Source: a virus. From it: a DNA stretch of 64,000 nt. How positions within the stretch are numbered: position 1 is the stretch's first letter; the number at the start of each line of letters is the position of its first letter. The notes under the pieces are model-generated. The model was not told the DNA's origin. It ran no database searches and was given only the letters and a program-made list of their open reading frames with translations. Location: the IMG/VR virus record IMGVR_UViG_3300013101_002049, positions 86,129-150,128 of that record; one strand, 5' to 3'. Positions 20,116 through 37,231 of the stretch are shown piece after piece. Made by a program: the position numbers and the translations under genes.

Positions 20116-22563
20116 ATGGATAAGGGAAAGAAAATTAGAGTTTTTGCGTATTGTGATTCACCAACTTGTGCTACAGGATTTGGTACAGTTTCAAGGAATA
20201 TATTCGAAGGTTTGTATAACACAGGTCGTTACGATATTGATGTGTTTGGAATTAATTATTGGGGTGATCCTCATAATTTTCCGTATCGCATTTGGCCAGC
20301 AGGTACAAATAAAGATAGAGACCCTTATGGTAGGCAAAAAGCAGTAAGTATGATACCTCGTATGCAATTTGATCTATTATTTTTGTTACAGGATTCATTT
20401 ATTATGGATTTTTTGCCCGTTTTGTTGCCTCATATGAAGGAAAATAGCTCTAAATCTTTTAGATCAATACTATATTTTCCGGTGGATTCTGTTTTGAAAG
20501 AGAAGTGGGGTAAAAATATTTCGGATGCTGACACTATCGTTGCTTATTCTGAATTTGGAAAGCAAGAAGCTTTGAAAGTTATGCCTAATCATGAGGATAT
20601 GAAAGTTATACCGCATGGTGTTAATACTCGTGAATTTTATCCACTACCTAAGCATGAAGTTGAAGCTTTTCGTAAAGAATATTTTAAGTCAGAAGCAGAT
20701 AAATTTATTATTACAAATCTTAATCGTAATCAACAACGTAAGGATGTTCCAAGAACTATTCAAGCTTTTAAAGAGTTTAGAAAACAAGTTCCTGAATCTA
20801 TTTTGTATCTTCATATGGCTATGCAAGATCAGGGATGGGATTTACCTGAGATATGTAGACAGATTGGACTGGATATTACTAAGGATGTTATTTTTCCGCA
20901 GAATTTTGGGCCTAATCAAGGTTATCCTCGTGAAATTGTTAATGCATTATATAATTCAAGTGACGTCATTGTAAGTACAACGCTTGGCGAAGGTTTTGGC
21001 CTTTGTTTAAGCCCCGATACTAATGTTTATACATCTAATGGTATTAAGACGATGGACGAATTAACAATAAATGACGCTGTATTATCGTCTAATGGTGAAT
21101 ATAATAATATCGAAGCTATATTATCTAGGGACTACAACGATTATTTGTATGAAATAACTACTTGGTTAAGTAATATACCTATAAAAGCATCGTCAGATCA
21201 CGGTTTCCTAGTATACAATGATGAGTTTGTTTGGAAGAAAGCTTCACAATTAAAAATAGGTGATAAATTGCTTTTTCCGTGTAATTATGCGTATAAAAAT
21301 GAGAATACTACTATTGATGTGCTAGATACTATTTATACATTTTTGAATAAAAGGCAAAAGGATAATATTGTAGTTAAAAATGGCCAGGTTCGTATACAAT
21401 CGAATTTTAAACAAGAAGAAAATTTTATACCGAAATATATAAATATTGATAAAGATTTTTGTAAATTGATGGGTTTGTATTTGGCAGAAGGGTCTTTAAG
21501 TTCTGTTAAGATGGATTCTGTAACATTTTCTTTTAATAAAAATGAAAAGGAGTCTATCGAGTTTGTTATCGCTAAAATGAAAGACGTTTTTGGGCTAGAT
21601 TTTTATGAACTCAAAGATAAACAGTTGAATTATAATGGATATTCTATAAGATTTTATTCTTCCGTAGTTGCATATTTATTTTATGCATTATGTGGCAAAG
21701 GTGCTAGAACAAAGAAAATTTCAACTATATTATTAAATTTAGATAAGCCAATGTTAATTAAATTAGTAGAAGGTGTGTATATTGGTGATGGTAGTTATAG
21801 CGAGTCTCAATATGAAATATCTTTCTCTACAACTTCTAGAGATATAGCTTATAATTTACGTTTGATTTTGTCACGTCTTGGTATATTATCATCTGTACGT
21901 ACTTCTAGAGTAGAATATAAAGTGAATGTTAGTGGTGTGTCGCGAGAAAATTTGCAAAAACTATTTGGTATGAATGTTGTTAAGGTTGATAGAACAAGAG
22001 CAAATGAGCGGGCTTCTATAAGTGATGAGTATTTAATATTACCGGTAAAGAATATTGATAAAGTACATTATAAAGGAAAACTTATAGATATTCAAGTAGC
22101 AAATACTAATGATTTTGTTGCTGAAAATGTTATTGTTCATAATTCGTGGATTGAAGCCATGGCTACTAAAGTACCAATTGTTATGCCAAATAATACAGCT
22201 ATGTCGGAATTTATTACTGAGGACAGGGGGTATCTTGTTAATAGCGGCAGCAATCCAAGTTTATGGACAGTAATTCCACATGATAATGAAGTTATGCGTC
22301 CATTAGTAGATGTTGATGATATGGTGAAAACTCTAGTTCATATTTATAATAATAGAGATGAAGCACGTACTAAAGCTGAAAATGCTTATAAATGGATTGT
22401 TAATGAGATGGATTGGCAGCGGGGTATTGTACCGCGATGGGTTGATGTTTTTGACGAAGCTTATGAATTGATTCAGAGAGAGGATAAAGAGCATAGTGAG
22501 GATGTAGAAGCACTTGTTGACCAATTAGGTAAGAAAAAAATTATTGAGTCGGAGGAATTATAA
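20116..22563 (+). CDS. GT4-family glycosyltransferase containing an intein
   Basis: TGFG, PHGV, NRNQQRKD; EGFGL|SWIEAMA reconstituted after removing the intein. Confidence 0.85.
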   Translation: MDKGKKIRVFAYCDSPTCATGFGTVSRNIFEGLYNTGRYDIDVFGINYWGDPHNFPYRIWPAGTNKDRDPYGRQKAVSMIPRMQFDLLFLLQDSFIMDFLPVLLPHMKENSSKSFRSILYFPVDSVLKEKWGKNISDADTIVAYSEFGKQEALKVMPNHEDMKVIPHGVNTREFYPLPKHEVEAFRKEYFKSEADKFIITNLNRNQQRKDVPRTIQAFKEFRKQVPESILYLHMAMQDQGWDLPEICRQIGLDITKDVIFPQNFGPNQGYPREIVNALYNSSDVIVSTTLGEGFGLCLSPDTNVYTSNGIKTMDELTINDAVLSSNGEYNNIEAILSRDYNDYLYEITTWLSNIPIKASSDHGFLVYNDEFVWKKASQLKIGDKLLFPCNYAYKNENTTIDVLDTIYTFLNKRQKDNIVVKNGQVRIQSNFKQEENFIPKYINIDKDFCKLMGLYLAEGSLSSVKMDSVTFSFNKNEKESIEFVIAKMKDVFGLDFYELKDKQLNYNGYSIRFYSSVVAYLFYALCGKGARTKKISTILLNLDKPMLIKLVEGVYIGDGSYSESQYEISFSTTSRDIAYNLRLILSRLGILSSVRTSRVEYKVNVSGVSRENLQKLFGMNVVKVDRTRANERASISDEYLILPVKNIDKVHYKGKLIDIQVANTNDFVAENVIVHNSWIEAMATKVPIVMPNNTAMSEFITEDRGYLVNSGSNPSLWTVIPHDNEVMRPLVDVDDMVKTLVHIYNNRDEARTKAENAYKWIVNEMDWQRGIVPRWVDVFDEAYELIQREDKEHSEDVEALVDQLGKKKIIESEEL
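21004..22143 (+). mobile_element. intein with LAGLIDADG homing endonuclease (380 aa)
   Basis: Starts CLSPDT, ends IVHN followed by Ser; GLYLAEGS and GVYIGDGS blocks. Confidence 0.92.
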
Positions 22564-23682
22564 ATGGAGATACGGGGTATTAAATATGTAGGCCCTATAT
22601 TTGATGTGTCTGGTTATGGGCAAGCAGCTAGAGGGTATGCTTTGTCATTACATAAATTGGGAATTCCTTTGACTATTGATTCTGTATCTTTTGAAGAGGG
22701 GTTGGCTGATTTTGGAGAAACTAGTCGTATTTTAGCTCCTCTTGTAGATAAAAATATAGATTATAATATAGTAATTATCCATCTAACTGCTAATTTATTT
22801 TGTTCTAAGGCTGAACCTGGTAAAATGAATATAGGTTATTTTGTGTGGGAAACCGATAAAGTTCATGAGGAATGGGTGGAAGAGGCCAATAAAAGTGTAA
22901 GTTTTGTGATGACTGCTTCTCAATGGGGAGCAGATATATTTAGAAAATCTGGTATAACTGTGCCGGTGGCTGCTATTCCTCATGGGATTGATGCTGATGA
23001 ATTTGTTGATGTTGACCCATATACTGTTGCTGGTGTAAAACAGAATGCTTATAAATTTTATGGAATATTTCAATTTACTGAACGTAAGCACCCGATGGCA
23101 TTAATTAAATCATATTGGAGTGCTTTTCAAAATAATGAAAATGTAGCTCTTATTTTGAAAACGTATCGTAATGGATTTGCGGATAGTGAAAAAGAGGCTA
23201 TACGAGCAACAATAAAAAGATTAAAAAAAGTAACTAATATGCCTATATACCCACCTATATATTTAATATCTGAACGTTTGGATAGATCTGAACTATTAGG
23301 ACTTCATAAAACATGTGATTGTTTGGTTCATTTGGATCGTGGGGAAGGTTTTGGTTTGGTGCCTTTTGAAGCTGGTGTATGCGGCAATCCTATATTAATT
23401 ACTGGATGGGGCGGTGCACTAGAATATGCTAAGGAAGATAATAGTTATTTAGTTAATTATACTCTTACGCCAGTATTTGGCATGCCTTGGTCACCATGGT
23501 ATTCTGGAAATCAGTTATGGGCTGAACCGGATTGTGGCCACGCGATTGAATTACTGCGTGAAATTTATAATAATCAGGGTGAAGCACGTATCCGTGGTGA
23601 GAAACTGAAACAATATATTATTGATAATTTTAGTTGGGAAAATGTTGGTAGTAAAATAATAGAAACAATAAAGTCTTTGTAG
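22564..23682 (+). CDS. GT4-family glycosyltransferase
   Basis: SGYG, WETD, PHGID, ERKH, RGEGFGLVPFEA. Confidence 0.85.
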   Translation: MEIRGIKYVGPIFDVSGYGQAARGYALSLHKLGIPLTIDSVSFEEGLADFGETSRILAPLVDKNIDYNIVIIHLTANLFCSKAEPGKMNIGYFVWETDKVHEEWVEEANKSVSFVMTASQWGADIFRKSGITVPVAAIPHGIDADEFVDVDPYTVAGVKQNAYKFYGIFQFTERKHPMALIKSYWSAFQNNENVALILKTYRNGFADSEKEAIRATIKRLKKVTNMPIYPPIYLISERLDRSELLGLHKTCDCLVHLDRGEGFGLVPFEAGVCGNPILITGWGGALEYAKEDNSYLVNYTLTPVFGMPWSPWYSGNQLWAEPDCGHAIELLREIYNNQGEARIRGEKLKQYIIDNFSWENVGSKIIETIKSL

Positions 23683-23692
23683 GAGATTAGAA

Positions 23693-36725: not shown

Positions 36726-36727
36726 AA

Positions 36728-37231
36728 ATGGAAATGATTTTTGAAAGACCGATAAAATTAATTGTCTCCGAAATAGATGGAGTTCTTACAAATGGCACAT
36801 ACGCAGAGGATGAATTAGGTAATACCTTATATAAAGTTTTTAATCAAAAAGATTTTTTTGTGATTAATGAATTAAAGAAGTATTATAAGGTAGTTTTTCT
36901 TTGTGATGATAATAAGATTAATTATAATATGTGCCAGCGTAAAAGTTTGCCATTTTATTGGGGTAAAGGAAGTAAAGGTAAGTATGAAATTATACCTAAT
37001 ATATTAAGGCGTTATGATGCTACCCCTGATAGTACTATTTACATAGGTTCGAAACTATCAGATAAGAAATGTATGCAATTGATACCTTATTCTATGTGCC
37101 CGGATGATGTTGGTGATTATTTAAGAAGCATTGCTTGGGCTCCATTTATTGCAAAAGGTGGTGAAGGTATTTTTATTGAGTTGCTCGACCTTTTACAAGA
37201 GAATATAAGAAAATATATAAATTTAATATAA
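36728..37231 (+). CDS. KdsC-like HAD phosphatase (degenerate motif I)
   Basis: SEIDGVLT in place of DVDGVLT; GGEG near the C-terminus as in KdsC. Confidence 0.65.
   Translation: MEMIFERPIKLIVSEIDGVLTNGTYAEDELGNTLYKVFNQKDFFVINELKKYYKVVFLCDDNKINYNMCQRKSLPFYWGKGSKGKYEIIPNILRRYDATPDSTIYIGSKLSDKKCMQLIPYSMCPDDVGDYLRSIAWAPFIAKGGEGIFIELLDLLQENIRKYINLI

Follow-up and report, generated by a model that had tools for sequence, protein, structure and literature searches.

Virion glycosylation by virus-encoded enzymes is already known from mycobacteriophages, in which phage-encoded glycosyltransferases (GTs) glycosylate virion proteins (Freeman et al. 2023, Cell Host Microbe, as cited in PMC12619734), and from giant viruses, among them the chloroviruses with N-glycans on Vp54 and Mimivirus with its fibril glycans (PMC9614988). 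Here we describe a 17-kb glycan island of 20 abutting open reading frames (ORFs) on the + strand, located at positions 20116-37231 of the window, by which we mean the whole analysed stretch of 64,000 nucleotides that forms the final 64 kb of the 150,128-bp viral contig IMGVR_UViG_3300013101_002049 of IMG/VR, together with a short motif, T-x-S-G, which is in marked excess in the outer virion proteins of the same phage. The best reading of these two features, to which we give an even chance, is that the enzymes of the island O-glycosylate outer virion proteins at x-S-G in the cytoplasm. As far as the cited account goes, mycobacteriophages likewise employ soluble phage transferases that act in the cytoplasm on the phage's own structural proteins, an arrangement which is predicted here from genes and sequence alone; their systems differ in comprising few genes that modify the C-termini of capsid and tail-tube subunits, with no short sequon defined in that account, whereas the present phage has 20 genes, no motif in its capsid protein and a dispersed four-residue tag on tail, baseplate and fibre proteins. 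The giant viruses share with it clusters of soluble transferases combined with sugar-nucleotide, acetyltransferase and methyltransferase genes that vary among relatives, and the chlorovirus protein B736L (PDB 3oy2) is the best solved relative of each of the first two island transferases, GT4a and GT4b. They differ in having eukaryotic hosts, N-linkage in the case of the chloroviruses and no comparable heptose/sulfate module, while the acceptor of B736L is itself unassigned.

Expected motif counts were obtained from shuffles that preserve the composition of each protein. T-[V/I/L/T]-S-G was observed 93 times in the tail, baseplate and fibre proteins as compared to 14 expected, and in a scan of all 24,000 three-residue patterns T-x-S-G came first for the structural proteins (85 observed, 13 expected, z 19.9). 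The excess is 5-10 fold in each tail, baseplate and fibre module, with 39 occurrences against 3.6 expected in five fibre-like proteins encoded after the capsid gene and 52 against 10.2 among the remaining structural proteins, and there is none in the head core or the capsid protein; the corresponding figures are 3 against 2.4 for the tape measure and 1 against 2.5 for 73 non-structural proteins. The reverse pattern, G-S-x-T, occurs at expectation in all protein sets, and structural proteins hold 1.5-2.7 times as much Ser-Gly (SG) as expected, without a matching excess of GS; the per-protein shuffles and the reverse pattern together rule out composition as the cause of the Ser-Gly excess. A substitution scan established that enrichment is limited to Ser at position 0, Gly at +1 and Thr at -2, with no enrichment of T-x-T-G, T-x-A-G or S-x-S-G, and that the flanks are V, I, L or T at -1 and T, V or S at +2. 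Both Ser codon families (AGT and TCT) are used at motif positions at background frequency, which rules out a signal at the DNA level and indicates that selection acts on the protein, and merging of paralogous contexts reduces the 93 sites merely to 80, so that internal repeats or paralogues are not the cause either. A preliminary description of the window had counted SG by eye in individual ORFs, and these counts proved exact: 10 in the 429 residues of ORF 2646 (4.0 expected), 29 in the 1355 residues of ORF 4258 (17.1 expected, with 21 GS), six SG and no GS in ORF 61858, and two in the 609-residue polymerase. The composition-corrected enrichment that it had called for likewise proved to be real, to act at the protein level and to be limited to the outer virion proteins.

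The excess is specific to a lineage. In the same scan applied to relatives T-x-S-G ranked first in G001, G002 and G012 and second in G009, and since G012 has a guanine-cytosine (GC) content of 41%, low GC is not the cause. No T-x-S-G excess was found in T4, T5, phiKZ, cyanophage S-SKS1, G006, G008, G010 or G011, and that of pelagiphage HTVC008M is weak, which together rule out a generic property of phage fibres. Between orthologues of approximately 40% identity just 17-24% of site positions are kept, as compared to 5-6% expected, and the majority of sites therefore arose independently while their density was maintained. A further case is G007, whose genome (181 kb, 42% GC) is complete and bears terminal repeats; it is a distant syntenic relative having in common with the present phage the capsid protein (27% identity), the giant tape measure (37%), GT4a (25%), a GT9-like protein (30%) and replication synteny. 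G007 has no T-x-S-G excess; its top pattern is P-S-G (58 against 9.5 expected), followed by A-S-G, in diverse contexts in twelve tail-region proteins, and [P/A]-S-G is enriched 8-20 fold at loci L180-L189 (about 96-119 kb and 151-164 kb), with no enrichment in its 5,506-residue tape measure (4 against 6.2). The Ser-Gly core is retained and the flank changed, and a trans-acting, diverging reader fits this better than a physical turn preference does.

The motif-rich proteins have unrelated folds, namely SPRY, ConA-like, propeller-like and the fibre domains DUF2793 and Gp53-like_C. The adhesin/fibre genes at the start of the window comprise a SPRY protein (ORF 1021), a beta-propeller-like protein (ORF 1831), a DUF2341 plus ConA-like protein (ORF 2646), a small ORF (3905) and a protein with four ConA-like domains (ORF 4258), and T-x-S-G occurs 25 times against 3.4 expected over genome positions 84-96.5 kb. 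For the two SG-rich ORFs at 59838-62694 taken together with the next ORF the count is 4 against 0.9; these two ORFs returned no PHROG or Pfam match except one unnamed PHROG. A single tRNA-Thr gene (anticodon GGT, window 59734-59810) lies just upstream of them. The five fibre-like genes after the capsid gene lie outside the window (genome 7263-20349, locus L001) and have the highest motif density; their products may be head or neck fibres, and they contain the repeats G-F-T-x-T-V-S-G-V-x-P-T-x-D-Y-H and Y-T-x-x-E-V-x-T-[I/L]-S-G.

The island is located in the replication module, between a RuvC/PD-(D/E)XK nuclease and DnaX/PolA, and Pfam, NCBIfam and the Atlas agree with its earlier designation as a 20-gene glycan cluster (Table 1). 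Eight glycosyltransferases are encoded (three GT4, one GT2, one GT9-like, one short GT9-like, one weak GT-B and one CgeB-like), in addition to a sulfotransferase, two methyltransferases, three left-handed beta-helix acyltransferases, WecB, a PIG-L deacetylase and a GFO/IDH/MocA oxidoreductase, and the island ends in a three-gene heptose-activation module consisting of a heptose-7-phosphate kinase, a nucleotidyltransferase with a cupin domain and a KdsC-like phosphatase. A hydropathy scan of the cluster found no multi-pass membrane protein, no ORF having more than one marginal hydrophobic window, and no Pfam family of a flippase, polymerase or polyprenyl-phosphate initiating transferase, the hallmarks of Wzx/Wzy- or ABC-dependent surface polysaccharide loci, was matched among the 20 genes. 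The absence of such genes, from which it had been argued that the products are cytoplasmic, is therefore borne out, albeit that the argument is weak, as soluble enzymes of the lipopolysaccharide (LPS) core likewise need no flippase.

Eight relatives of the lineage have the order nuclease, GT4a, GT4b, GT2, GT9-like, GT-B, GT4c, followed by a phage-specific tail, and judged by this gene order the island is a conserved front joined to a variable tail. The KdsC-like phosphatase at its end is 74% identical in L006, 45% in G001 and 37% in L170. The complete island of G001 (175 kb) has in common with that of the present phage only GT4a (60% identity), GT4b (51%), a WecB-like gene and the KdsC-like end gene; its interior encodes ThyX, a DXD transferase, GT2, GT17, a polysaccharide deacetylase, a formyltransferase and a C-methyltransferase, and both the GT9-like gene and the heptose kinase are absent from it. 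GT4a and GT4b are the only transferases common to every close relative in which the start of the island was seen. Over phages of 30-41% GC the core transferases are conserved at least as well as replication proteins: the 60% identity of GT4a in G001 compares with 44% for DnaB, and in L175 (contig G012) the GT-B-like protein GTB325 is 70% identical as compared to 40% for the nuclease. Such conservation suits a phage-encoded acceptor better than variable host glycolipids. Both members of the GT4 pair have an E-x7-E motif, that of GT4a being split by an intein and rejoined in the splicing alignment, and as the motif of GT4b is intact, a role for this protein as an inactive GtfB-like partner of GT4a is not supported. 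The likeness of the pair to B736L was also considered as a pointer to the acceptor, but as the T4 alpha-GT resembles B736L too (PMC6024577) it cannot separate protein from DNA.

The bacterial autotransporter heptosyltransferases Aah and TibC O-modify Ser in beta-rich adhesins in the cytoplasm, a reaction whose counterpart is predicted here, and they have in common with the GT9-like protein of the island (ORF 24600) a GT9-type GT-B catalytic fold and a four-Cys cluster (PMC4358343). This protein had been put forward in the preliminary description, on account of its C-terminal Cys cluster, as an Aah/TibC-like heptosyltransferase that performs the initiating step. Its membership of the GT9 family holds, as profile and fold both match; homologues form more than 120 clusters at 53-60% identity, and the AlphaFold2 model has a predicted local distance difference test (pLDDT) score of 88.6, with the first Rossmann strand starting from residue 11. 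The Foldseek list for the model is led by WaaF (1psw), a Veillonella GT9 protein (3tov) and WaaC, with TibC in ninth place (4rap, E 2e-7, template modelling (TM) score 0.67, as compared to E 3e-11 and TM 0.71 for WaaF 1psw). The N-terminal beta-barrel of TibC, residues 1-97 (PMC4358343), has no equivalent in the 297-residue GT9-like protein, and all 25 aligned homologues are of about equal length. The four Cys are invariant, lie at the extreme C-terminus with a spacing of 2/8/4 and are covered by the alignment to the WaaF-type model TIGR02195, which extends to residue 290, whereas in TibC an iron-finger insertion with Cys339/342/358/370 is needed for the dodecamer (PMC4358343). The fold and the Cys cluster were thus described correctly, while the barrel is missing, the spacing differs and the protein is closer to WaaF/WaaC. 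The distribution of the gene leads to the same end: G001 keeps the motif without the GT9-like gene or the heptose kinase, and G006, G007 and G008 encode a GT9-like homologue of 30-32% identity without T-x-S-G excess. The suggested co-occurrence of the motif with the GT9/HldE cluster consequently fails in both directions, and an Aah/TibC-like, heptose-first mechanism is not supported by these comparisons. Of the earlier proposal of virion O-glycosylation by the phage, the heptosyltransferase mechanism is left without support, whereas the glycan cluster and the motif excess do fit it.

On these grounds we infer that the island would serve an uncultured phage with a giant tape measure as a cytoplasmic assembly line for glycans that involves no membrane proteins. 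The front set of transferases (GT4a, GT4b, GT2, GT9-like, GT-B and GT4c) would be followed by a donor-making and tailoring tail that varies by relative, the predicted products of which are UDP-N-acetylmannosamine (through WecB), a nucleoside diphosphate-activated heptose (through the kinase, phosphatase and nucleotidyltransferase, and perhaps the cupin as an isomerase) and re-acylated, methylated or sulfated sugars. The acceptor would be Ser of the phage's outer particle proteins, comprising fibres, adhesins, baseplate and two giant tail proteins, probably within T-[V/I/L/T]-S-G-[T/V/S], and modification would occur in the cytoplasm before or during assembly. GT4a or GT4b, being the sole transferases retained in all those close relatives, would be likelier than the GT9-like protein to read the tag and initiate the glycan, and the order of the sugars beyond that step is conjectural. 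Several points weigh against virion O-glycosylation. The phage is uncultured and known from its sequence only, and every close relative in which the island start was seen carries both the motif and the island, so that there is no clean case of loss and the link between the two is circumstantial. There is no depletion of the motif in non-structural proteins, motif Ser residues lie only weakly closer to insertions and deletions (p 0.065) with flanks slightly less conserved (p 0.027), and structure prediction of a motif-rich fibre-like protein (alignment A2) reached a pLDDT of 50, too poor to place the motif Ser. The position of the island within the replication module, beside a nuclease and a thymidylate synthase gene, and the presence of GT9, heptose-pathway, KdsC-like and LpxD-like genes, which are typical of LPS inner-core synthesis and whose enzymes are also soluble, point elsewhere.

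WaaC, WaaF and WaaG are peripheral cytoplasmic transferases of the LPS core and need no flippase of their own, and the lack of membrane genes is therefore also compatible with remodelling of the host envelope, in which soluble transferases at the inner face of the host membrane would modify lipid A-core or another lipid-linked glycan that host exporters then export. The cell surface would be altered during infection, thereby excluding other phages or keeping progeny off debris, and the T-x-S-G excess would be unrelated. The nearness of the GT9 fold to WaaF and WaaC agrees with this, as do the heptose-7-phosphate kinase, KdsC-like and LpxD-like genes, and the inner-core pathway (HldE, GmhB, WaaC, WaaF) similarly combines a heptose-7-phosphate kinase, nucleotidyltransferase, phosphatase and GT9 transferases, all soluble. 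The likeness is incomplete, however, since the cluster lacks a SIS domain and hence a GmhA of the SIS type, its phosphatase resembles KdsC rather than GmhB (analogues of the missing ADP-heptose pathway steps are possible), and no NCBIfam LPS equivalog for WaaC, WaaF or LpxD is reached, the scores except that of the kinase lying far under the cut-off (TIGR02193 31.8 against 185.3, TIGR02195 29 against 134.6, LpxD 117 against 242). Moreover, the six core transferases are 46-70% conserved over phages of 30-41% GC with probably different hosts, and the lineage-specific motif, which is the strongest observation, stays unexplained, so that we regard envelope remodelling as rather unlikely, though to be taken seriously. 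The motif could instead be a feature of folding or assembly with no sugar role, irrespective of what the island acts on, either a strand-turn signature or a tag for a lineage-specific chaperone or other modifying enzyme. Its surroundings do resemble a beta-strand leading into a turn (T/V/I ahead of it, T/V/L behind), some sites fall within recognisable fibre repeats and positions are kept above expectation. A turn preference should, however, be evident in the fibres of T4, T5, phiKZ and the cyanophage, from which it is absent; turns do not usually require Ser to the exclusion of Thr or Ala at one position and Thr to the exclusion of Ser at another, the flank differs in G007 and the motif is found in unrelated folds, all of which leaves this explanation improbable.

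DNA-modifying genes are often placed in replication modules, near nuclease or thymidylate synthase genes, and the island between nuclease/RuvC and DnaX/PolA, with a thymidylate synthase gene between GT4a and GT4b in relatives, has such a position. In that case a subset of the transferases or the whole set, with the GT4 pair foremost, would add a sugar, heptose included, to a modified base as a defence against restriction. Phage clusters with a BshA/MshA-like GT-B, a HAD-like enzyme and a cytidylyltransferase place mono- or di-heptose on 5-hydroxymethylcytosine (Pyle et al., bioRxiv 10.1101/2023.12.21.572611), and thymidylate synthase homologues start the formation of glycosylated cytosines, D169N being the signature of a 5-hydroxycytosine synthase (Lee et al. 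2026, PMC13326640). Such clusters have in common with the island GT-B, HAD, nucleotidyltransferase and heptose genes near replication genes, and the resemblance of the T4 alpha-GT to B736L is in keeping with this explanation. They differ from it in that the searches made here found neither a base hydroxymethylase nor a hydroxylase or TET partner, and in the far greater number of transferases and tailoring enzymes of the island, as eight transferases with sulfation, methylation and acylation are far above the one to three sugars known on DNA. An enzyme for a hydroxylated base (dCMP/dUMP hydroxymethylase, D169N 5-hydroxycytosine synthase or methyltransferase plus TET) was not found on the contig, which is about 57% of the genome, and a search for Tet_JBP, made without a positive control, returned nothing. 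Conservation of D169 and N177 assigns the ThyA-like protein to the dUMP type and not to that of the D169N signature, ThyX at the same place in G001 argues for plain dTMP synthesis, and the complete G007 has no ThyA-family gene (no PF00303 match). DNA hypermodification is accordingly the least probable of the explanations considered, and a very unlikely one.

Cytoplasmic O-glycosylation of the outer virion proteins remains the best reading of the island and the motif. A bolder form of it, which is possible but doubtful, is a sequon-directed viral glycosylation code, in which complex, strain-variable glycans decorate the tails and fibres of a group of phages with giant tape measures at a short Ser-Gly tag, and the flank of the tag, which differs between this phage (T-x-S-G) and G007 ([P/A]-S-G), co-evolves with a conserved virus-type GT4 pair. 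If true, this would be the first O-glycosylation sequon to be defined in a phage, and a portable cytoplasmic protein-glycosylation system; new, too, would be a 20-gene cluster of soluble enzymes paired with a dispersed tag of four residues, and the tag together with soluble transferases would be useful for glyco-engineering in bacteria. Should the tag prove to be a genuine sequon, the particles of phages in natural waters would bear self-made, strain-variable sugar coats that could alter adsorption, stickiness to debris, grazing, enzymatic attack and recognition by antibodies. The motif excess in outer virion proteins offers a purely computational marker for further systems of this kind.

Table 1. 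Features of the window discussed in the text; coordinates are window positions and scores are given with model cut-offs where available.
Feature	Position	Strand	Basis and remarks
Adhesin/fibre genes, T-x-S-G-rich	1021..8325	+	PHROGs, Pfam; tblastn to cyanophage and Rhizobium-phage lectin-like structural proteins
Divergent ThyA-family protein, 217 residues	10445..11098	+	PF00303 45 bits; equivalents of catalytic Cys, D169 and N177 kept (numbering of PMC13326640)
GT4a, GT4 with intein	20116..22563	+	Pfam Intein_splicing, LAGLIDADG_3, Glycos_transf_1; first of two conserved core transferases
GT4b, GT4	22564..23682	+	Pfam Glycos_transf_1 and GT4-conflict; E-x7-E intact at residue 261; 51-79% identity in relatives
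GT2 (GT-A fold)	23693..24610	+	Pfam Glycos_transf_2; 44-84% identity in relatives; core in closer clade
GT9-like, 297 residues	24579..25472	+	PF01075 35.9 bits (cut-off 22); invariant C262, C265, C274, C279
Short GT9-like, 226 residues, lead only	25465..26145	+	Atlas structure TM 0.72 to GT9 cluster; no match in Pfam/NCBIfam
Sulfotransferase	26142..26777	+	Pfam Sulfotransfer_3 65 bits (cut-off 27)
GT-B-like, GTB325	26774..27751	+	Weak Glyco_trans_1_4; 64-82% identity in lineage relatives, best conserved core transferase
GT4c, last gene of conserved core	27735..28685	+	Glycos_transf_1 just under Pfam cut-off; E-x7-E at residue 224; 51-67% identity in relatives
Class I S-adenosylmethionine (SAM) methyltransferase-like, lead only	28672..29241	+	No Pfam match; Atlas features 0.95-0.99, TM 0.85-0.95 to Methyltransf_11 clusters
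LpxD-like left-handed beta-helix N-acyltransferase	29259..29990	+	TIGR01853 117 bits (cut-off 242), C-terminal part only; Pfam Hexapep
Hexapeptide acyl/acetyltransferase	29987..30463	+	Pfam Hexapep 65 bits
CgeB-like glycosyltransferase (Glyco_trans_1_2)	30460..31389	+	PF13524 86.5 bits
SAM methyltransferase	31429..31953	+	Several Methyltransf families over Pfam cut-off
WecB, non-hydrolysing UDP-GlcNAc 2-epimerase	31956..33017	+	TIGR00236 288.5 bits (cut-off 210); Pfam Epimerase_2 308 bits
PIG-L/BshB-like GlcNAc de-N-acetylase	33010..33642	+	Pfam PIG-L 61.7 bits; BshB1 78.6 bits, below cut-off
GFO/IDH/MocA sugar oxidoreductase	33650..34528	+	Pfam
NeuD/PglB/VioB-type sugar N-acetyltransferase	34515..35000	+	Hexapep 105 bits; TIGR03570 84 bits, below cut-off
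Heptose-7-phosphate kinase	35002..35934	+	TIGR02198 341.4 bits (cut-off 345), full length, effectively at threshold; Pfam PfkB 135 bits
Nucleotidyltransferase (weakly HldE domain II-like) with cupin (possible isomerase)	35949..36725	+	CTP_transf_like, Cupin_2; TIGR02199 55 bits (cut-off 181.5)
KdsC-like HAD sugar-phosphate phosphatase, conserved island end	36728..37231	+	KDN-9-P and KdsC models, below cut-off
Two SG-rich ORFs, 668 and 278 residues	59838..62694	+	SG 15 against 8.3 expected; 6 against 1.7, GS 0

All real genes of the window lie on a single strand, at a GC content of approximately 32%, and upstream of the window the contig encodes the capsid protein, the five fibre-like proteins, a 7,531-residue tape measure and baseplate and fibre proteins. 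CheckV assigned a completeness of 57% to the contig and of 55-66% to relatives of 145-175 kb, which points to a probable full length of about 260 kb for the genome, of which the present contig is a part. Megablast of the glycan cluster against cultured phages returned no match, and no cultured phage has a family A polymerase more than about 33% identical to the one encoded here. A related capsid protein is encoded on 276 IMG/VR stretches, and in the 80 of these 276 that were listed it is 78-98% identical; judged by these matches the lineage is common in metagenomes. The 'moraphage' (PMC12619734) was considered as a member of the same lineage and rejected, as it belongs to a different one with a family B polymerase. 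In G009 a single in-frame TAG in the GT9-like gene (9104-9979, loci L200-L205) raised stop-codon recoding, which was rejected on a coding density of 0.91 with the standard code, and an error or a broken gene is the more likely explanation.

The intein of GT4a comprises 380 residues (residues 297-676, nucleotides 21004-22143), is of the LAGLIDADG type and interrupts the E-x7-E motif; alignment with an intein-free homologue places its junctions at GEGFGL|C... and ...HN|S, with the canonical Cys1, terminal His-Asn and +1 Ser. In relatives GT4a has 428-457 residues when free of the intein and 818-826 with it, and GT4b has 735-736 residues in three relatives, where an intein is probable. An intein with an HNH domain is present in the ribonucleotide reductase (window 41560-44763), and RNase HII (window 46275-47981), with a LAGLIDADG-type insert, is the third intein-bearing gene of the window. 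The ThyA-type gene lies near dnaN in this phage and between GT4a and GT4b in L174 and L175, and ThyX occupies that same spot in G001 (L099:3833-4582), which represents non-orthologous displacement and relocation of the thymidylate synthase function. A gene of 530-640 residues combining Mom-family, CapR and REase_MTES_1575 domains is located at genome 68064-69992 (locus L004:8064-9992) and occurs in up to four copies in relatives, for example in G001 at 37657, 99546, 146583 and 165613 and at L157:15670-17265; its places of insertion vary, one of them adjoining the glycan island, which gives it the look of a mobile nuclease-type element.

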